From IMG/VR virus record IMGVR_UViG_3300025679_000005: DNA of 64,000 bases, one strand, 5' to 3'. Both the position numbers and the translations under genes were made by a program. How positions within the stretch are numbered: position 1 is the first letter of the stretch; every line of letters starts with the position of its first letter. This DNA is from a virus (taxonomy: Duplodnaviria; Caudoviricetes). The notes beneath the pieces were generated by a model that was given only the letters and a program-made list of their open reading frames with translations, did not search any database and had not been told where the DNA came from. Positions 14,548-49,504 of the stretch are shown here, piece after piece.

Positions 14548-16014
14548 ATGACTACAGCTTTAGAGAGTGACGCATACAAAGCCTCGATGACCGAAGCGGG
14601 TTTCCCGTTGCGAGACGAAAACTTTTACTACGCGCATCGGCGTGGCGGGGCCCAAGGCTGGCACTACATGCCACTTGATGTCAACAAATTCATTCAGAGC
14701 ATCCTACCGACGCCGACGGAAGAGGATTATAACTACCTGAAAGAACACAACTACGAGGCCGGTGCTGGTACTCGTAAGGCCTTCACGCTGAAAGATCAAG
14801 TGAAGATCCTATCCGTACCTCAAGGCGGATGGTTCTACAACCGTGAAGCTGCGTTCAGTGGAAGGGGGCCTTCAACTCTCGTGAGCTGGCTGGAGCCCAA
14901 GACTCTGCAACTGCATCTTCGCATCCAAGTAGCGACGGCGTACATGTCCGCCGACCCTTCTCTAGCCGAAAAGATTCGGTACGTTACATGCGAACGTGAG
15001 AAAGAGATCATCCTGGAAACCCTGGATTCTCTGAAACCTTTGGGCGTTCGGGCCGCCCAAAGGTTTCAGATCGAAGTCTGCGAGCAGCAGTACTATGACG
15101 CCGTATACGCTCGTGCTCGAAAGCTCGTTGACGTGGTGCACAATCCAGATCGCATCTTCGAAGTCGGTATGCGTGGAGTGTCTTGCATGGAGCAGCACGA
15201 GATCGCGCTCCGAGCAATCAAAGATGCGGGCATTCTTCGCACCTCCAATATGGAACTTGCTCGCAGGCTGGGGATGACCCCCGTAGGTACAATGGGTCAC
15301 GAGCACCCTCAGCGGATGGGTGGGGACTACTGTGCTTTTGCCACTATGCGGGATCGTTTTCCAGGCTTCTTGTTCTACTTACCCGACACCTTCGACACTA
15401 TTCGCTCTGGAGTGCCTGCCGCCTTGCGTGCGATTGGGGAAGCCCCCGACCGTAATGCGGGCATTCGTTTCGACTCGGAAGAAGGTATCCGAGGACATTA
15501 CATGTTCACCGTGGTCCGTGCCAGAGAGCTTGGGTTGACACCCAACTTGGCCCTGGAAAGTGGCTGGAACCACGACCTGACTGTAGAATTTGAAGAACTT
15601 CGAAAGCAGATCAAATGGCCGGAAGATCGCCAGTGTTATGGCTTTGGGGGGTTCCTCAATAAAACCCCCTGGCCGTCCTTCGAGCGGGATACCGTCTCCG
15701 CAGTGTGGAAGCTCTCTCAGACAGGAAATCGTGCGGTCATGAAGTTCGGAGATGAGCCCGGTGGGGCCAAGGAGTCTATTCCCGGCCGTCCGCAAATCTA
15801 TCGTCCAAAGCCGGCTGTGCACAGTGATGTGATCGGCTATGTTTACCAAGAAGGCGAGGATCATCCCAACTCTGATGTCTTCTGCCTGAGCGGCCAGGAG
15901 ATGACCTCTCCGCTATACCCAGGCCGTCCAGGATCGTTGGTGTACTCCCCAGAAACTCAGCGTTTGGTGAGCGAGTGTCGTGCCGCCAAGAAGCGTATCC
16001 TGGAGGAGTGCTGA
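14548..16014 (+). CDS. pncB: nicotinate phosphoribosyltransferase (PncB/NAMPT family)
   Basis: SDAYK, EVGMRG, GTMGHEH, LPDTFD, GIRFDS motifs. Confidence 0.85.
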   Translation: MTTALESDAYKASMTEAGFPLRDENFYYAHRRGGAQGWHYMPLDVNKFIQSILPTPTEEDYNYLKEHNYEAGAGTRKAFTLKDQVKILSVPQGGWFYNREAAFSGRGPSTLVSWLEPKTLQLHLRIQVATAYMSADPSLAEKIRYVTCEREKEIILETLDSLKPLGVRAAQRFQIEVCEQQYYDAVYARARKLVDVVHNPDRIFEVGMRGVSCMEQHEIALRAIKDAGILRTSNMELARRLGMTPVGTMGHEHPQRMGGDYCAFATMRDRFPGFLFYLPDTFDTIRSGVPAALRAIGEAPDRNAGIRFDSEEGIRGHYMFTVVRARELGLTPNLALESGWNHDLTVEFEELRKQIKWPEDRQCYGFGGFLNKTPWPSFERDTVSAVWKLSQTGNRAVMKFGDEPGGAKESIPGRPQIYRPKPAVHSDVIGYVYQEGEDHPNSDVFCLSGQEMTSPLYPGRPGSLVYSPETQRLVSECRAAKKRILEEC

Positions 16015-16015
16015 T

Positions 16016-17992
16016 ATGCACCTTCTAAAGGTAGGGACAGCTTCCGTCAATCAGGCCCCTCTCGATTGGACGGGTAACTACGAGAACATCGTCGAAGCCA
16101 TTAACATGGCGGCGGCAGAAGGAGTGCAGATCCTCTGCCTCCCGGAGCTGTGCATCACCGGCTACGGGTGTGAGGATCACTTTCACTCGTACGATGTTCA
16201 GCAGACGGCGCTCCAAGTTCTGAAGATGATCGCCAAGGACATCTCCGAGGCAGAGCTGAAGATCAAGGTCTGTGTAGGGTTGCCGTTCTTGCACAACAAC
16301 GCCCTGTACAACGTTGTGGCCATGATCGATTCCGGCAGGATCTTAGGGTTCGTACCCAAGCAACATCTAGCCGGCGACGGGCTGCACTACGAGCCTCGTT
16401 GGTTCAAGCCCTGGCCTGCGGGTCATCAGGACGTAACCAACTTCATCGACGACGAACTCTACGTCCCGATTGGAGACATGATCTTCGAATTCCGTCACAC
16501 GGGGGAGTCAGCCGTCGTGCGGGTAGGCTTCGAAATCTGTGAAGACGCCTGGGTGGCCAACCGTCCTGGTGCTCTGCTCTCTCAGTACGGGGTAGACATC
16601 ACGATGAACCCCTCGGCTTCCCACTTTGCTTTCGGCAAGTATGAGGTCCGTCAAAGGTTCGTCATGGAAGGGTCCCGAGCTTTCGGCACAACCTATCTCT
16701 ACGCGAACTTGCTGGGCAATGAAGCCGGGCGGGCTATCTACGACGGCGGTAACCTCATCGCTACCAAAGGGAGCATCGTAGGGTTTGGGCGACGATTTTC
16801 GTTCAAACCTGTGGAACTCCTGACGGCGGTCATCGACATTGATGCCACGAGGACTCAGCAGTCTGCCACGGCCAGCTTCACGCCTAAGTTGGGGAAGTGT
16901 CGTGTCATGCAAGGGTATCAGGCCCTGGAGGCCACCGAAGAAGGGGTATCCAACGGGCATGCCATACAGGAGGACGAGACCCACGACGAATTCACCAACG
17001 CCATCTCCTTGGCCTTGTGTGACTACATGCGTAAAGCCCATTCTAAGGGGTTTGTGATCTCCCTCAGCGGTGGGGCTGACTCGGCCGCTTGTGCCGTGCT
17101 GGTCCGAAAGATGTGGGACATCGGTGTGGACACCTTTGGGGAAGAGCTGTTCCTCGAACACTTGGGACTCGAACCTGGAACAGGGTTCAAGGACATCCTC
17201 ACGTGCATGTACCAAGGCACCAAGAACAGCTCTGACGTGACTTTAAACGCAGCAACAGTCGTTGCCGAAGAGCTGGGGGCCAAGTTCTTGATCGTCTCCG
17301 TAGACAGCCTCGTGGAGGGCTACAAATCAATGATGTCGACGGCTTTGGGTCGGGAGCTATCCTGGGAGACTGATGATCTGGCCCTACAAAACATCCAAGC
17401 CCGTGTCCGAGCGCCTAGCATCTGGATGGTAGCAAATGTCGAGGGGAAGCTCCTGATCACTACCAGCAACCGAAGTGAAGCGGCGGTGGGGTATTGTACA
17501 ATGGACGGTGATACCGCCGGCAGTATTGCGCCGATTGGTGGTATCGGCAAAGCCTTCTTGCTCCGTTGGCTACGGGACTCCGCAAGACTAGACTTCCCTT
17601 CCCTGGAAGCTGTGATCAAGCAGAAGCCGACAGCAGAGCTTCGCCCAGGGACTTCGGCGCAGACAGATGAGACCGACCTCATGCCTTACGAAGTTCTAGA
17701 TGCAGTAGAAAAGGAGGCCATTGTGGGCAAGAAGTCTCCAACTGATGTCTACAGGTCTGTTCGTCGTAGGTTCTCAATGTACGCTGAAAAGGACCTTCTT
17801 CTCTGGATCGAGCGGTTTTTTCTTTTATGGGCCAGGAATCAGTGGAAGCGCGATCGGCTTTCCCCAGGATTCCACGTCGATGAAGAAAGTCTTGACCCCA
17901 AAACATGGTGCAGGTTCCCAATCCTCTCAGGAGGCTTCGTCCAAGAGCTTGCCGCACTGCGAGCCTACGCCAAAGCTGAAGGTGTGTGTTGA
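16016..17992 (+). CDS. nadE: glutamine-dependent NAD+ synthetase
   Basis: Nitrilase domain (LPELCITGY, EICED) plus SGGADS, QNIQAR, TSNRSE, PTAEL. Confidence 0.95.
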   Translation: MHLLKVGTASVNQAPLDWTGNYENIVEAINMAAAEGVQILCLPELCITGYGCEDHFHSYDVQQTALQVLKMIAKDISEAELKIKVCVGLPFLHNNALYNVVAMIDSGRILGFVPKQHLAGDGLHYEPRWFKPWPAGHQDVTNFIDDELYVPIGDMIFEFRHTGESAVVRVGFEICEDAWVANRPGALLSQYGVDITMNPSASHFAFGKYEVRQRFVMEGSRAFGTTYLYANLLGNEAGRAIYDGGNLIATKGSIVGFGRRFSFKPVELLTAVIDIDATRTQQSATASFTPKLGKCRVMQGYQALEATEEGVSNGHAIQEDETHDEFTNAISLALCDYMRKAHSKGFVISLSGGADSAACAVLVRKMWDIGVDTFGEELFLEHLGLEPGTGFKDILTCMYQGTKNSSDVTLNAATVVAEELGAKFLIVSVDSLVEGYKSMMSTALGRELSWETDDLALQNIQARVRAPSIWMVANVEGKLLITTSNRSEAAVGYCTMDGDTAGSIAPIGGIGKAFLLRWLRDSARLDFPSLEAVIKQKPTAELRPGTSAQTDETDLMPYEVLDAVEKEAIVGKKSPTDVYRSVRRRFSMYAEKDLLLWIERFFLLWARNQWKRDRLSPGFHVDEESLDPKTWCRFPILSGGFVQELAALRAYAKAEGVC

Positions 17993-31168: not shown

Positions 31169-31731
31169 AATCGAAGAACGTGGTCGTAAGGTTTCGCCAG
31201 GCAGGGCTGATCAAGCGGGTGGCCGCTCGTTTTGCCATGGAGCACAGCTCGCCTGAGGAGCTGAAGGATTACCTCCACGAGCATCCAGGGGCGGATCCAA
31301 AGAACCACCACGTCGAGAAGAAGGACAACAAGCCCTCTTCAGGTGGGGATGACAAGGCCTCCAAAGAGTTCATGCGTCATGGTCAGAACGCTGAGAAGAA
31401 GCTGAAAGCAATCAGTCGTTTTGCGGAGCAGGCTGACAAGCAGGACGGACCCAAGGCCAAAGAAGCTTTGGACAAGACCCATGCCGCCGGCTCAGAACTA
31501 CACGACTTGGGTGTGCAGCTACACAAAAAGTTGTCGGGTATGAAATCCAAGTCTGCGGACAAGGAATTCGGATACATGAAGGGTAGCTTGAAGAAGCTCG
31601 AAGACGCCCTCAGCGACGCCAAGGAAGGCTCGATGCACGGCTTCTCAGCAAAGGCAATTGCCAAAGCTGCTGATGAGCTGTACGGCGATATCCACCGTGT
31701 GACCGCCCTGGGAGTCTCAGGCAACCTCTGA
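31165..31731 (+). CDS. putative virion/late protein
   Basis: RQAG, KRVAARF and YLHEHPGAD motifs. Confidence 0.6.
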   Translation: MKSKNVVVRFRQAGLIKRVAARFAMEHSSPEELKDYLHEHPGADPKNHHVEKKDNKPSSGGDDKASKEFMRHGQNAEKKLKAISRFAEQADKQDGPKAKEALDKTHAAGSELHDLGVQLHKKLSGMKSKSADKEFGYMKGSLKKLEDALSDAKEGSMHGFSAKAIAKAADELYGDIHRVTALGVSGNL

Positions 31732-31753
31732 CTTCGGTGTATAGACTCCGATC

Positions 31754-34480
31754 ATGGAGTTTCTCAACCAGGTCCTTTTAGGTGATTGCCTCGTTCGTCT
31801 GAAAGAACTGCCGGACTGCACATATGACAGCTGCGTCACTGACGTGCCTTATGGCCTTGCCGACAGAGAGCCCACCCTTGAAGATATCCTGGCATATCTT
31901 CAAGGCGCCGACTCGCTAGGCCCCCTCAAACAGGGTCGCAAGAACTGTTTGAACAGCGTGGTCGAGCTTCCCGTTGTCCCTGAGACGAATCACAGTGATT
32001 CCCAAGTCCCGGAGAATTTGATCTCGTTCCATATCGTAGTGGCGAGTGGCCCTGTTGTGCCATCCGGGACGATCCAACTCGATGATCAGCTTTCTGTCGG
32101 GGAAGAAAAAATCGGTTACAAAGGACCTGTCGTCAAGCTCGATGACATGTTGGTGAATGAAACTCACTCCGAGAAGCCCCAAAGCTTCAACCACGGCCAG
32201 TTCAGTCTTGGGAAAAGCCAGTGCTTTTCCGGATGCATAGAGACGTGCCGCTGCTTTACTCAATCGAGTCCGACCACCTTCAGTGTACTGGTATGGCTTG
32301 ATCACGATCCTCTTACTGAAACCGAATCGTCTACCAAGATAATGACAGGTGGGGGAGCAAAAATTCCCGCCATGCTTACTCTTGATGTGGGAAACATGAC
32401 GGGTGAAATCCGTCCTGCAAACATCACAGGAGAGGCTGACTTTGGTCTGTTTCTCTTGCCCCCTAAGAATGTAGGAGCACTTCCTGGAGCAGGTAGTTTG
32501 TTTTCCCTTGTCCAAGTACTTTTGGGCAGCGAGGTAGGCGATCAAACAGACCGGACAGACTCGTTCGACATTTCTATCCCAGCCGTTGTTTTGGGTCGGT
32601 TCCATTCTCCCAGAGTTGCTCAAAAGGACTTTATGAATAAGGGATGGGAGATTCCTAGTGTCTCCGTCTGGAAAGAGGTCTACCGCATACTCAAGCCAGG
32701 GGCTTATGTCCTCTGCTTCGGGGGGACCCGAACCTTCGACCTCATTTCAATGGGGCTCCGAGCCGCAGGGTTCGAGAACCGCGACACGATCGCTCATGAG
32801 TTCGGCGTTCCTGTTCTTCAGTGGGTCCAAGGGATGGGGATGCCCAAGAGCAGTAACCCAGGTAAGGTTGTCAAGAAAAAGATAGGTTCGTGGGTTGGTT
32901 CGCGAGAACCTACTGATGAACACACAGTAGTAAATGCATACTGTACGTGTCTCAAAGAAACTAGAATGGACTCCGGAATTGGAGGTTCTGTTGGGGACAA
33001 TCTCCGATATGCAGCTAGCAGTTCAGATGGGGCTGCCCAGAACGTCGAGTTCAGAGAATCGCGTACGCCATCATCGACGCACGCTAGGTATAACAGCTCA
33101 CAGAACGAAGCTACATGTAGTGATAGTGTGCCTGACTTGCGGGAAAAAGGCCCGCAAGAGGATGAAAGAGATCCGCAAGAACAAGAAAAACTACTGTTCA
33201 CACCCGTGTGCATCGATGGGGCAGAAGACTCGGGATTCAGAGAGTCTGCGCTACGGGCGAGGGTGGAAAGCTCTGAAGGCTCTGGTGTTACAGCGGGACA
33301 AAGCTTGTCGATGCTGCAAACAGATCCCAAAAAGGACTCTTCACGTGCATCACTTGAAACCGTTCCGATTCGGGGGGACCAACAATTTGGAGAACTTGGT
33401 AGCTCTGTGCGATTCGTGTCATCACAAGATAGAGGCGGCAACGACCAGAATTTTGAGTTCGATACAGGTCGTTGTCACTCTAGAAGAATCTTGCTTGACG
33501 ATACAGGTAGATGGGGTCATGCGAGGGCAAGAGTCTGTTCCTGGTGTGGCTCCTTAGACAAGTCCTTTTACGATAGCCTAGAGAATCTTGGCAGTGCACT
33601 GAAGCCTGCTTGGGAGCCGATTCTGGTCTTTCGCAAGCCGGTAGAAAAGACCCTCGTGGAGAATGTGCTCAAGTACGGGACCGGGGGGATCAACATTGAT
33701 GCTACCCGAGTCAAGCACGCCAGCAAAGACGACTTCGAGAAGCACAAGGCACAGGTTGAGGCCGTCAAAGCCAAAGGCGGTGTCCGAGGAGATTCCTGGA
33801 AGAACTCCTCAGACCTCTCAGGAGCTAACGATGTGCAGGAAGGGGGTAGGTGGCCTGCCAACATCTTGCTCACGCATTCTGAGGGCTGCCAGCACAGCGG
33901 AACCACCAAGGTTAAGGCTCACCCCGCTTGGAACGACAACCGCCCACCATCTGCTTTTACCGGCCCAGAGACCTCTCCGGTGCACCATGCTGAAGAGGAT
34001 GGAACCGAAACCGTGGAAGTTTGGAACTGTGTAGAAGGTTGTCCTGTCCTGGCCTTGGAAACCCAAACCGGGCTCCTCAAGAGCGGGCCCCTGAATCAAG
34101 GAGGAGCCTCCAGGTTTTTCCAGCAGTTCGAAGGCCAAGAACTACCCGAGGCCCCGTTCTTTTACACAGCCAAGCCGTCTAAGAACGAGACGACGTTAGG
34201 CGGGCGCATAGAGAACGAACATCCGACGAAGAAGCCTATTGCTCTCATGAAGTGGCTCATTCGATTGGTCACACGAAAGGGGGGACTCACCATTGATCCC
34301 TACTGCGGGTCCGGGTCCACTCTCCACGCAGCCATCGAAGAAGGCGTCAACTTCACGGGAATTGAGAGGGACGAGCCCTCCTACAAGACCTCGGTGGAGC
34401 GTGTCACACTTGTAGCGAAATTGTACGAGGAAGCCCATGTCCAACGAGACCTCTTTGACCTTGCGATGTCGAATGACTGA
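31754..34480 (+). CDS. beta-class N4/N6 DNA methyltransferase with two in-frame insertions
   Basis: GDCL, TDVPYG, RILKPG, LKPAWEPI, HPTKKP, DPYCGSGST all in one 908-codon frame. Confidence 0.9.
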   Translation: MEFLNQVLLGDCLVRLKELPDCTYDSCVTDVPYGLADREPTLEDILAYLQGADSLGPLKQGRKNCLNSVVELPVVPETNHSDSQVPENLISFHIVVASGPVVPSGTIQLDDQLSVGEEKIGYKGPVVKLDDMLVNETHSEKPQSFNHGQFSLGKSQCFSGCIETCRCFTQSSPTTFSVLVWLDHDPLTETESSTKIMTGGGAKIPAMLTLDVGNMTGEIRPANITGEADFGLFLLPPKNVGALPGAGSLFSLVQVLLGSEVGDQTDRTDSFDISIPAVVLGRFHSPRVAQKDFMNKGWEIPSVSVWKEVYRILKPGAYVLCFGGTRTFDLISMGLRAAGFENRDTIAHEFGVPVLQWVQGMGMPKSSNPGKVVKKKIGSWVGSREPTDEHTVVNAYCTCLKETRMDSGIGGSVGDNLRYAASSSDGAAQNVEFRESRTPSSTHARYNSSQNEATCSDSVPDLREKGPQEDERDPQEQEKLLFTPVCIDGAEDSGFRESALRARVESSEGSGVTAGQSLSMLQTDPKKDSSRASLETVPIRGDQQFGELGSSVRFVSSQDRGGNDQNFEFDTGRCHSRRILLDDTGRWGHARARVCSWCGSLDKSFYDSLENLGSALKPAWEPILVFRKPVEKTLVENVLKYGTGGINIDATRVKHASKDDFEKHKAQVEAVKAKGGVRGDSWKNSSDLSGANDVQEGGRWPANILLTHSEGCQHSGTTKVKAHPAWNDNRPPSAFTGPETSPVHHAEEDGTETVEVWNCVEGCPVLALETQTGLLKSGPLNQGGASRFFQQFEGQELPEAPFFYTAKPSKNETTLGGRIENEHPTKKPIALMKWLIRLVTRKGGLTIDPYCGSGSTLHAAIEEGVNFTGIERDEPSYKTSVERVTLVAKLYEEAHVQRDLFDLAMSND
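31916..32623 (-). CDS. DUF559/Vsr-like PD-(D/E)xK endonuclease nested antisense in the MTase
   Basis: Zn motifs (CPVC, CSRKC, CDVC, CSPTC) then PKTE...DFFF...IIELD...WH. Confidence 0.85.
   Translation of the reverse strand: MSNSGRMEPTQNNGWDRNVERVCPVCLIAYLAAQKYLDKGKQTTCSRKCSYILRGQEKQTKVSLSCDVCRTDFTRHVSHIKSKHGGNFCSPTCHYLGRRFGFSKRIVIKPYQYTEGGRTRLSKAAARLYASGKALAFPKTELAVVEALGLLGVSFIHQHVIELDDRSFVTDFFFPDRKLIIELDRPGWHNRATRHYDMERDQILRDLGITVIRLRDNGKLDHAVQTVLATLFEGA
32934..33557 (+). CDS. HNH endonuclease nested in the +1 frame of the MTase
   Basis: CRCC...HVHHLKP...NNLENLVALCDSCH. Confidence 0.88.
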   Translation: MHTVRVSKKLEWTPELEVLLGTISDMQLAVQMGLPRTSSSENRVRHHRRTLGITAHRTKLHVVIVCLTCGKKARKRMKEIRKNKKNYCSHPCASMGQKTRDSESLRYGRGWKALKALVLQRDKACRCCKQIPKRTLHVHHLKPFRFGGTNNLENLVALCDSCHHKIEAATTRILSSIQVVVTLEESCLTIQVDGVMRGQESVPGVAP

Positions 34481-34973
34481 CCCTCTTGTGAGGTTTGTAG
34501 GTTTGGAGGACAGAGTGTTCAGCCAACCATTCACGGTCATCGATCCCCAGGGCTCGGCGTGGGGAATTGCGTCGGACAAGATCTGGTTCGTAGCCTCCAG
34601 AGGTAAGCACTTTGCTCGCTTTAAGGGTACTATGGATTCTCTGTCCTCAGTTCTTAAGTTGTTGAAGGCAGAACCTTCGGAGTTCATCGAGGCCCTATCC
34701 TCGGGAAAGTCCGTTGTTGAGGGATCCCCTATAGTTTCGATCTTAGGGGTCCCCGTCAGCCAAGACCGCTTGAACACCCTGATCGAGGCCTTCCCTTGTA
34801 GGATCCAGGTGTGGAATTCCTCAGCCTATTTAGGGGTACCTAGCCTAGGGTTCTATTCCAAGGAATGGCGAGCCTTTTTGATGGGCTATGAGAACGTCAT
34901 CGGGGAGGTACCTGAGTCCAACATTGAGGTTCAGGACGAGCGAAGCCTGTTCCGCCTTGCAATGGGTTTATAA
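34473..34973 (+). CDS. hypothetical protein
   Basis: Overlaps MTase stop. Confidence 0.6.
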   Translation: MTDPLVRFVGLEDRVFSQPFTVIDPQGSAWGIASDKIWFVASRGKHFARFKGTMDSLSSVLKLLKAEPSEFIEALSSGKSVVEGSPIVSILGVPVSQDRLNTLIEAFPCRIQVWNSSAYLGVPSLGFYSKEWRAFLMGYENVIGEVPESNIEVQDERSLFRLAMGL

Positions 34974-34999: not shown

Positions 35000-35440
35000 A
35001 TGTCCTCTACCCCTGCCGCAAGAGTGACCATACGTTATGCGGCGGCCCGGCCAATGAAGCCGGAGAAGATGCAGGCCCTTCTCCTCAAGCTCCGGAAGGG
35101 TGCTGAGGGCAGCTTGCGAATGCCAGAGCTGGTGCAGGTCCTGGACTATCTAGGGGGCTACAAGCTCGAAGAGGCCTTGGTGCTTCAGAGTCAGGAACCT
35201 TACAAGGGTGCCAAGAAGGCTTTCTCTGGATCTCTGGCTCAGGTCAAGGCTGAGTGGGAAGAGATCAAGGCCAATGAGGTCAGCACTCTGCCGACTCATC
35301 CAGTGCTGCACAAGGTGTACTATCAGGATGTCGACCCTATCGTGGAAAAGGGTGACGGCACAGCTTACTTCAGAGCACCTTTCGTCCAGCCATTGTGCTC
35401 ACGGAGTCTGCGCTCTGGTTCTGTCGTGACGCCCGTGTAG
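35000..35440 (+). CDS. putative virion/late protein
   Basis: N-term ARVTIRYAAA motif. Confidence 0.55.
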   Translation: MSSTPAARVTIRYAAARPMKPEKMQALLLKLRKGAEGSLRMPELVQVLDYLGGYKLEEALVLQSQEPYKGAKKAFSGSLAQVKAEWEEIKANEVSTLPTHPVLHKVYYQDVDPIVEKGDGTAYFRAPFVQPLCSRSLRSGSVVTPV

Positions 35441-35523
35441 AGCAGCGTGGCATCGTTCGTGATGATGTAGACGAACCAGGCAGCATTCGTTATCTGAGGC
35501 AATACTTCACTTGTGCTCATTTA

Positions 35524-45243: not shown

Positions 45244-45951
45244 ATGCCCATAAAGAACTGCGAAGTCTGTCAGAAGGAATACACAGCCTCCAAGCATGCT
45301 TTGCCCAAGCGTCGAGCCTGTTCTGTGGATTGTGGGCACAAGTTACGTAATAAACATATCACAGTAACTTGTGCCCAATGTTCAACCCCTTTCAGCATCA
45401 GAGCACGTCGGTTGAAACTTTCTAAAAGTGGCCTGGTGTTCTGCTCTAGGCTCTGCAAAGAAAGGGCCTCAAGCTACGGTGGTCACCTTGAGAGAGGTAC
45501 GGGAAAGTATTCCTATCGAGAAAGAGCCTTATCTGAATACGGATCCAGCTGTAATTCGTGCGGGTACGACACAGACGCTAGAATGCTTGATGTAGATCAC
45601 GTAGATTCGGACAGGGGGAATAACAAAATATCAAACTTACGTGTACTGTGCGTCTGGTGTCATGCCTTGAAGACCCGCCAGGTTAGGAGCCATCATCGAG
45701 GCGCTCCTGAGGAGGGAATCAAAAGGGAGAGGTCCGCCAACCCCAGACCCACAAAGATCCATTGGCCTTCAGATGAAGAGCTGGAGGGATTACTTTGGGA
45801 GCAGTCAGCTGTGCAGGTAGCCAAGGCACTTGGCGTCTCCTCTACTGCAATCAAGAAAAGGTGCTTACGGAGAGGAATCCAAACCAGACCCATAGGCTAT
45901 TGGGCTAAGGTGAATTCTCCTACAAATAAGCCCTCCAGAAGATTCAGATAA
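45244..45951 (+). CDS. HNH endonuclease with C-terminal HTH
   Basis: LDVDHVD...NLRVLCVWCH; WPSDEEL...GYW. Confidence 0.9.
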   Translation: MPIKNCEVCQKEYTASKHALPKRRACSVDCGHKLRNKHITVTCAQCSTPFSIRARRLKLSKSGLVFCSRLCKERASSYGGHLERGTGKYSYRERALSEYGSSCNSCGYDTDARMLDVDHVDSDRGNNKISNLRVLCVWCHALKTRQVRSHHRGAPEEGIKRERSANPRPTKIHWPSDEELEGLLWEQSAVQVAKALGVSSTAIKKRCLRRGIQTRPIGYWAKVNSPTNKPSRRFR

Positions 45952-48666: not shown

Positions 48667-48769
48667 CTAGGCGTAGCGACCTAGGTGGGGGTACCAAGGG
48701 CACTTCGGTGTATGAACGGCTTCACACTGTTGCCCGTCGTGAGCGGGACTAAATTGAAAAGAGAAGACA

Positions 48770-49504
48770 ATGGCGAAACTGAACCAAATTCTGGCGGTCG
48801 AGAAGCAGACCAAGACGAACACCAACGAGCAGATCACGGTCTTGTACCAGACCTTGCAGAAGGCTCCGCTCTTGGCGGGCATCTCCCGTACCTACAAGCC
48901 GGCCGAAGAAGAGGGCGAGCAGTTCCCGCCGGAGAACGTTCAGGTGCAGGTTCGAGTCGAGCAGACTCTCAAGGAAGTCGCCAAGCACATGATCCCGCTC
49001 TTTGACGTGACGATAGCTCGTGACACCGCCAACTGTTCGGCCAAGTCCGACGTGGTCGTGGACGGTAAGGTCATCCTCAAGGATGTTCCGGCAACGTACT
49101 TGCTTTGGCTGGAGAAGCAGCTGACCGACATCCACACGTACATCGTGAAGGTCCCGACCTTGTCCCAAGACGAGACCTGGACTCTTGACACCAACCAGAA
49201 CTGTTACCGTACTGGCGTTGTCGGCACGGCGAAGACGAAGAAGATCCCGCGTGCCTTCGTCAAGGCTGAAGCCACCAAGGAGCACGCAGCTCAGGTGGAT
49301 GTGGTCCATGAGGACAAGGTAGCCGGCTACTGGTCGACCACCAAGTACTCGGGCGCCATTCCCCGCAACCGTGCTCAAGAACTTCGTGACCGAGTGGAGA
49401 AGCTCATGGCTGCAACGAAGGTTGCCCGTGAGCACGCCAATCTCGTGGAGGTGCCCAAGGTAGCAGCCGGCGAAGCCGTGTTCGACTACCTGTTCGCCAC
49501 CTGA
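48770..49504 (+). CDS. conserved coiled-coil hypothetical protein (DUF7873-like, family name from memory)
   Basis: MAKLNQILAVEK...GISRTYKP...DVPATYLLWLEKQL; GAAAAGAGAAGAC RBS region. Confidence 0.8.
   Translation: MAKLNQILAVEKQTKTNTNEQITVLYQTLQKAPLLAGISRTYKPAEEEGEQFPPENVQVQVRVEQTLKEVAKHMIPLFDVTIARDTANCSAKSDVVVDGKVILKDVPATYLLWLEKQLTDIHTYIVKVPTLSQDETWTLDTNQNCYRTGVVGTAKTKKIPRAFVKAEATKEHAAQVDVVHEDKVAGYWSTTKYSGAIPRNRAQELRDRVEKLMAATKVAREHANLVEVPKVAAGEAVFDYLFAT

Follow-up and report, generated by a model that had tools for sequence, protein, structure and literature searches.

How can a gene remain readable from end to end when a second, complete gene lies inside it on the opposite strand? This question is raised by a DNA methylase gene in a 64,000-nucleotide stretch (the window) of IMG/VR virus record IMGVR_UViG_3300025679_000005 (Duplodnaviria; Caudoviricetes), here called G000. 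The record is a 155 kb virus sequence from peat metagenome DNA, and because 155 kb corresponds to a completeness of only about 32% according to CheckV, it is a fragment of a jumbo phage. The methylase gene is a single open reading frame (ORF) that runs across two inserts: insert 1, the main subject of this work, which contains on the opposite strand a gene encoding a Vsr/DUF559-type nuclease, and insert 2, which contains an HNH nuclease gene on the same strand in a shifted frame. Comparison of related loci indicates that selection very probably acts against stops in the methylase frame along the whole of the antisense gene. Frames are named relative to the codons of a gene: a0 is the aligned frame on the opposite strand, s+1 and s+2 are the frames on the same strand shifted by one and two bases, and a1 and a2 are the other two frames on the opposite strand. 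The coordinates of all features are given in Table 1.

The limits of insert 1 were determined by comparison with a set of alleles lacking it (L004, L092 and about 119 proteins). In about 119 relatives the site is occupied by a native loop of 4-5 residues, LDTGG or LKTG (xxLDTGG-DFMG or xxLKTG-DFMG), about 20 residues past catalytic motif IV. The insert-free alleles are as similar to the insert-bearing ones as the latter are to each other. Only about 7 codons of insert 1 fall outside the nuclease ORF, whose probable start is the conserved ATG at 32605, giving a protein of 229 amino acids. The nuclease and methylase frames are codon-aligned, the nuclease gene contains no TTA, CTA or TCA codon, and the methylase frame has 0 stops in the 238 codons of the insert. 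An earlier note on this DNA, made from the sequence alone, had described an antisense DUF559/Vsr-type ORF of 235 codons that fills a methylase insert, is codon-aligned with the methylase, avoids these three codons, and shows neither an intron core nor intein ends. The PF04480 match, the comparison with insert-free alleles that the note had proposed, the codon counts and the searches for splicing signals reported below all agree with this description.

The AlphaFold model of the nuclease consists of two Cys-rich beta-hairpin modules followed by one domain. According to Foldseek, the best compact fold matches of this domain are the homing endonuclease I-Bth0305I (3r3p, target template-modelling (TM) score 0.68), the DUF559 protein 3hrl and Vsr (1vsr). 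Few relatives of the nuclease were found; the homologs are 50-63% identical, and the conserved acidic catalytic residues D171, E182, D184, D197 and D201 are invariant in seven homologs. A megablast search of the region against deposited phages gave no match, nor did a tblastn search of 50,697 deposited phage genomes with the DUF559 protein, and no relatives of the DUF559 gene were found in a scan of 185,579 prokaryote genomes.

Nine distinct loci with insert 1 were available: the window, L003, L084/L085, L086, L087, L002, L088/L089, L090 and L097. L084 is nearly the same as L085, and L088 is the same as L089; L097, located on a 323-kb phage contig, was found by a profile scan, whereas a scan of viral contigs with a single protein gave no match. 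In every relative with readable DNA, the nuclease gene is inserted in antisense orientation into a homologous methylase gene, after the YLxG helix and before the DFMGxxW motif. The aligned methylase frame is open in 9/9 loci, while the other two antisense frames contain 4-14 stops; thus, none of these loci carries a stop in the methylase frame, the result that the earlier note had said would refute its reading. We then calculated, for each locus, the probability of finding no stop given its nuclease protein and the local usage of Leu and Ser codons. For the seven loci with a moderate G+C content these probabilities are 8e-4, 0.05, 0.012, 0.012, 0.07, 0.047 and 0.0035. The nucleases of the nine loci share 44-67% identity, with synonymous sites close to saturation, which makes the values for the individual loci nearly independent, and the joint probability of nine open frames out of nine is far below 1e-8.

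The L003 copy (L003:5210-6070, plus strand) differs from the others in that its nuclease frame has a TGA at the position of a Cys codon of the window (TCSRR-stop-SYIL), with the methylase frame open. This TGA may reflect either a decaying nuclease in a host gene that is maintained or a sequencing error.

What the window locus shows by itself depends on codon usage. The earlier note had put the chance of a stop-free frame at about 1e-5 by assuming that 3/64 of the codons are TTA, CTA or TCA. Their real share is lower, namely 2.7% in 49 genes of the window and 3.2% in 14 other nuclease genes of G000. Resampling of synonymous codons for the DUF559 protein gave 5.9 expected stops and a probability of zero stops of 1.6e-3. 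At the rates of the 14 control nuclease genes, this probability is 5e-4 for the DUF559 gene (a0) and 2.6e-7 for the HNH gene of insert 2 (s+2). Hence, the former estimate was about 100-fold too optimistic. Moreover, long aligned antisense frames that are plainly due to chance are present in two other genes of the window (Table 1). The a0 frame is therefore easily open in G000, and the window locus alone is only suggestive; it is the comparative evidence that makes the open frame significant.

The other nuclease genes of G000 provide controls within the same genome. Homing-type nuclease genes are abundant in this record (12 HNH, 4 GIY-YIG and 1 DUF559 matches), and among them only the two methylase nucleases are located inside a longer open frame. 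Of these two nested genes, the DUF559 gene has 0 stops in a0 and 12 in s+2, and the HNH gene has 10 stops in a0 and 0 in s+2. The 14 free-standing HNH/GIY-YIG genes have 2-15 stops in a0 and 7-29 in s+2, so that the codon counts against other nuclease genes which the earlier note had suggested also single out the nested gene. Because each nested gene lacks stops only in the frame that the methylase uses, codon bias is disfavoured as an explanation. Base composition was also considered as the cause of the open frame and was rejected, since the other four frames of the nested gene and the 14 control genes show normal stop densities.

We analyzed which of the two strands is under selection at the protein level. 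In a gapless alignment of 237 codons, substitutions within the insert peak at position 1 of the methylase codons, which is position 3 of the nuclease codons. In the flanks, substitutions peak at methylase position 3, and this also holds between two alleles that both bear the insert: L003 and L084 differ at codon positions 1, 2 and 3 of the methylase flanks by 11, 8 and 32 and by 17, 10 and 51 substitutions. Since both of these alleles carry the insert, the methylase is kept under purifying selection while carrying it. Beyond roughly the first 15 codons, the synonymous positions of the nuclease differ at 46-60% of sites, about as in the methylase exons. From about 31960 to 32600 it is the nuclease frame that dominates, and the methylase-frame reading looks unconstrained except for the absence of stops.

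The upstream end of the insert behaves differently. Selection does not change from one frame to the other at the left boundary given in the earlier note: the first eight codons of the insert, SLGPLKQG in the window, are still conserved in the methylase frame. Indeed, SLGPLK(K/Q)G is the best-conserved methylase-frame block of the N-terminal region, above the DPPY block. The amino-acid sequences of the block differ pairwise by 0.09 on average in the methylase frame versus 0.54 in the nuclease frame, and its variation is confined to methylase third positions. The nuclease gene is terminated opposite a Leu or Ser codon of the block, wherever one is spelled CTA, TTA or TCA. This block was not found in the roughly 119 insert-free alleles, and a search of IMG/VR for an insert-free allele with GPLKKG directly before DFMG gave none. 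It thus seems that the element brings along a short peptide that matters in the host frame. Because the block is conserved at the amino-acid level with synonymous variation, the methylase frame would be translated at least into the insert, and the block is the most direct sign of host-frame translation into insert 1.

The host gene encodes an orphan methylase whose catalytic motifs are in the order typical of the beta class, with motif IV preceding motif I and both present. An insert-free homolog gave matches in the PDB to CcrM, M.RsrI, the PvuII methylase and DpnA, and the best fold matches of the model of the full product are CcrM and M.BceJIV. Only residues 1-53, about 292-387 and about 603-908 of this product are truly methylase. 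In all complete alleles the motifs are intact and the gene is under purifying selection, and in the window as well as in all complete homologs it is a single ORF. The segment between DPPYG and FMG varies from about 2 to 25 residues among relatives, and the insertion site is therefore plausibly a tolerant one.

No sign of a splicing system was detected. Rfam intron models gave no match in the region 31500-34700 at E values up to 10, and a group I or group II ribozyme core was not found. Insert 1 reads SLGP ... VAQK, followed by DFM; these ends are not intein-like, as the Hint-type Cys/Ser ... His-Asn plus Cys/Ser/Thr is missing. We propose the following scenario. The nuclease would be made from an antisense transcript and, if it behaves like other homing endonucleases, would cleave the methylase alleles without the insert in co-infecting phages, after which repair would copy the insert into them. 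Homing of this kind has indirect support from the one fixed site in nine loci and from the similarity between insert-free and insert-bearing alleles. Insert 1 would be removed by neither an intron ribozyme nor an intein. Instead, the host gene would stay usable because the length of the insert is a multiple of three and because TTA, CTA and TCA, which are stops on the methylase strand, have been purged from the nuclease gene; in the a0 geometry such a purge would require no amino-acid change in the nuclease. Ribosomes would then read through, and the resulting methylase would carry some 230 residues of non-native loop. It is likely that the frame is open for this reason, i.e., that read-through yields a single, at least partly active methylase with a loop of this size.

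Several observations weigh against this interpretation. In two high-G+C loci the probability of finding no stop is about 0.7, and these loci are therefore uninformative; furthermore, the loci are related, and the per-locus probabilities are not fully independent. A scan for promoters and terminators gave nothing above the shuffled expectation, and a good ribosome-binding site for the nuclease was not found. Motif IV of the window methylase is DVPY and not DPPY (residues 30-33, 31841-31852). This variant is present in 3/9 insert-bearing alleles (window, L087 and L002) and in 0 of about 119 insert-free ones. It could mean that the methylase activity is altered or reduced, and alternatively it could be a variant that was co-converted along with the nuclease. 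Finally, the AlphaFold model of the 908-residue product is poor (predicted template-modelling score (pTM) 0.49), with the methylase pieces packed unlike those of solved enzymes (root-mean-square deviation about 20 A), and because the full-length model is poorly assembled, it does not demonstrate that the loop is tolerated.

Three other explanations have to be weighed against read-through. Insert 1 might be removed by an unrecognised form of RNA or protein splicing, and the frame would then be needed because removal takes place at or after translation. Stop purging indeed shows only that ribosomes pass, not that the loop is retained in the mature protein; a signal for processing might be seen in the SLGPLKKG conserved at the upstream junction, and real inteins live in the same methylases. 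Introns, however, need neither a length divisible by three nor a stop-free exon frame, the intron search remained silent, and only the few spare codons beside the nuclease ORF would be available. The intein ends that insert 1 lacks are found in the true inteins of L090, L097 and L092, and the methylase-frame peptide is mostly of low predicted local distance difference test (pLDDT) score and is not conserved beyond the level imposed by the antisense gene. For a comparable insertion in mycobacteriophages, ShiLan (see below), which has its hidden gene on the same strand, the authors likewise reported no splicing signature (PMC11855218). Thus, we regard splicing as unlikely. Ribosomal bypassing as in T4 gene 60 was rejected: the gap would measure about 690 nt, the putative take-off codon is not followed by a stop, and a stop-free insert is not needed for bypassing.

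A second explanation, to which we give similarly little credence, is true dual coding, in which the peptide read from the insert in the methylase frame has come to contribute to the working of the enzyme and is more than a tolerated loop. It would explain why SLGPLKKG is conserved better than the DPPY block in the methylase frame and why two segments of the reading, at residues 168-183 and 203-221, are predicted as beta strands. Past roughly the first 15 codons, however, there is little extra constraint on the synonymous positions of the nuclease, more than 100 relatives live without insert 1, and the moderate pLDDT of the strands comes from an alignment of four sequences, which resemble one another because the antisense gene constrains them. 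It is less likely still that the methylase is broken or made as separate pieces, with the open frame an accident of codon bias. The chance aligned antisense frames of 244 codons in two ordinary window genes would fit such an accident; a Met codon just past the insert (KDFM) with AAGGA upstream might start a separate piece, and motif IV is DVPY. The joint probability of the nine open frames speaks against an accident, as do the opposite stop counts of the two nested genes and the counts in the 14 control nuclease genes. The intact motifs and the purifying selection in all complete alleles argue against a broken gene, and a downstream piece alone would be without catalytic motif IV. Read-through to one methylase therefore remains our preferred explanation.

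The earlier note had gone on to propose a class of selfish nuclease that survives by being translated as a tolerated loop of its host protein. The nine open loci support such a mode of survival, with translation as its presumed basis, but the class is not new. The ShiLan domain (Arsenault, Gosselin and Gogarten 2025, Genes 16:178, PMC11855218) is a stop-free insertion in a mycobacteriophage methylase that hides an out-of-frame HNH gene, shows no signature of an intron or an intein, and should loop out according to the authors' prediction. As with insert 1, the host is a phage N6/N4 DNA methylase that also hosts inteins, the nuclease is encoded in another frame, and insert-free alleles exist. 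Unlike in ShiLan, the nuclease gene of insert 1 is codon-aligned on the opposite strand and is of the Vsr/DUF559 type and not HNH, its site is between motif IV and FMGxxW, and its carriers are environmental jumbo phages. Antisense, opposite-strand or DUF559 cases are not mentioned in PMC11855218. Therefore, the principle has already been published for a same-strand HNH gene, and what is new is the variant with a Vsr/DUF559 gene in aligned antisense orientation at a site not described before. It follows that the hidden-nuclease strategy reported in 2025 is not a one-off, as it recurs in a second, unrelated nuclease family, on the other strand and at another site in environmental jumbo phages. 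To that strategy the present locus adds selection statistics, a host-frame adaptor peptide and a code-based rule for the permitted geometries.

Insert 2 of the same gene is the ShiLan homolog and, unlike insert 1, has the same-strand, shifted-frame HNH feature, so that both forms are found in one gene and each is a control for the other. Across insert 2, the methylase frame has 0 stops versus 9.5 expected (P about 2e-5), and 0 of 100,000 synonymous shuffles were stop-free. Insert 2 is 48.5% identical to the insert in 'DNA methylase' genes of 18 mycobacteriophage records. The same site, offset and open host frame are found in L092, in a Mycobacteroides chelonae prophage (L095/L096) and in these 18 records, which annotate the whole stretch as one 'DNA methylase' gene; gp70 of phage SG4, which was checked directly, has the same site and the same frame geometry. 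In the AlphaFold model, the methylase-frame reading of insert 2 has a pLDDT of 26-36 throughout; by contrast, that of insert 1 reaches 70-83 in its two predicted beta strands (32255-32302 and 32360-32416).

Homing endonucleases with the Vsr-like (EDxHD) fold were described in connection with 'fractured genes' (Dassa et al. 2009, PMC2677866); they are phage-borne and located in conserved sites of genes for DNA metabolism. The catalytic fold of the insert 1 nuclease is the same, as shown by the I-Bth0305I and PF04480 matches. In the fractured genes, however, the nuclease gene is on the same strand and splits the host ORF, usually together with split inteins, or is located in a group I intron (PMC2677866). 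The host ORF in the window is never interrupted or divided, and neither an intein nor an intron is present. Inteins with homing endonuclease domains resemble insert 1 in being stop-free, in-frame inserts at conserved sites of the same methylases; unlike these, insert 1 lacks the Hint splicing blocks and ends, and its nuclease is not encoded in the host frame. Another likeness comes from the palindromic elements of Rickettsia, reportedly recognised by Ogata and co-workers in 2000, which are said to be selfish DNA of about 100-150 bp, non-coding themselves, that is translated in frame inside host proteins. There, too, a mobile insert is said to persist in coding sequence and to be read through as an extra surface segment; unlike these elements, insert 1 is a complete 0.7-kb gene on the other strand.

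An enumeration based on the standard genetic code showed that, of the five alternative frames, only a0 and s+2 can always be kept stop-free by the choice of synonymous codons. For a0, only Leu and Ser codons are at stake. For s+2, no codon ending in T may precede AA, AG or GA, which is always possible because every such codon has a synonym ending in C. In the other three frames some dipeptides are forbidden: Ile, Lys, Met, Asn or Thr after Met or Phe, and Tyr after Cys, Asp, Phe, His, Asn or Tyr. Both nested genes fall exactly into the two cost-free geometries; with two cases, this agreement is only suggestive. HNH and Vsr/DUF559 nucleases may have converged on a splicing-free life within a host ORF that is limited to a0 and s+2 and brings along a host-frame adaptor peptide, SLGPLKKG, replacing the destroyed loop, although we are somewhat more inclined to doubt this proposal than to accept it. 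If true, homing endonucleases would have a fourth general way of life in addition to introns, inteins and free-standing genes, and it could be predicted by rule where such genes can hide. The geometry rule states which overlaps cost the nuclease no amino-acid change, and it is testable across metagenomes. For annotation, it is relevant that gene callers split or mis-call such methylases and miss or truncate the nested genes, and long antisense ORFs like this one deserve a closer look before they are set aside as shadows. In addition, the locus offers a natural experiment on the size of unrelated loop that an enzyme can bear.

Table 1. Positions of the methylase gene, its inserts and other features (window coordinates unless a locus is given).
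Feature	Position	Strand	Basis and remarks
Insert 1, 238 codons, absent from insert-free alleles	31913..32626		Junctions determined against L092, L004 and 119 proteins; same site and near-equal length in nine loci
Vsr/DUF559-type homing endonuclease gene, 235 codons from TTG	31916..32623	-	PF04480, 37.9 bits versus a cut-off of 20.6, E 1.8e-9
Nuclease domain	31931-32182	-	C-terminal to the Cys-rich DNA-binding part
SLGPLKQG block, element-borne, first eight insert codons	31913..31936	+	Overlaps the variable nuclease tail and stop codon
N6/N4 DNA methyltransferase ORF, beta-class, 908 codons, unbroken across two inserts	31754..34480	+	PF01555, E 1e-24
Methylase N-terminal segment, residues 1-53, catalytic motif IV	31754..31912	+	Aligned to nine insert-bearing and >100 insert-free alleles; pLDDT 82-97; substitutions peak at codon position 3
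Methylase middle segment, DFMNKGW ... GMPKSSN	32627..32915	+	Conserved in all alleles; substitutions at codon position 3; pLDDT up to 97
Methylase C-terminal segment with LKPAWEP, NxHPTKKP motif and S-adenosylmethionine (AdoMet) motif I DPYCGSGST	33561..34480	+	Pfam match at residues 615-878; C-terminal pLDDT 86-96
Insert 2, ShiLan-domain homolog (approximate limits)	32916..33560	+	Absent from L003
Nested HNH gene, 207 codons	32934..33557	+	PF01844, E 5.5e-8; methylase frame one base behind (s+2)
Chance antisense shadow ORF, 235 codons	16508..17215	-	Codon-aligned to the NAD synthetase gene 15980..17992; open frame of 244 codons
Chance antisense shadow ORF, 228 codons, without TTA, CTA and TCA	48749..49435	-	Codon-aligned to gene 48770..49504; open frame of 244 codons
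Intein-bearing methylases	L090:1-3897; L097:763-3885; L092:3017-5794	-; -; +	Ends CLSED...GN/S and CLHPD...SHN/T (slash, junction)

Canonical inteins were observed at two further sites of these methylases, before (S)GFPKS and inside NxHPT(V/K)KP between P and T. Inteins, a hidden HNH gene on the same strand and an antisense DUF559 gene are thus all found in one methylase family.

The Cys-rich N-terminal half of the insert 1 nuclease (32339-32557, minus strand), with its CxxC ... CSxxC repeats, is shared with the HNH proteins P0007-P0009, at 46-50% identity over 45% of the query. This similarity indicates that a DNA-binding module has probably been shuffled between nuclease families. Similar Cys repeats in the ORF 45244..45951 are apparent by eye only. 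Finally, a 51-codon ORF at 35365..35520 on the minus strand, antisense across the junction of two plus-strand ORFs, begins with a GIY-YIG-like stretch (E 4e-8 for its match in G000) and looks like a nuclease fragment.

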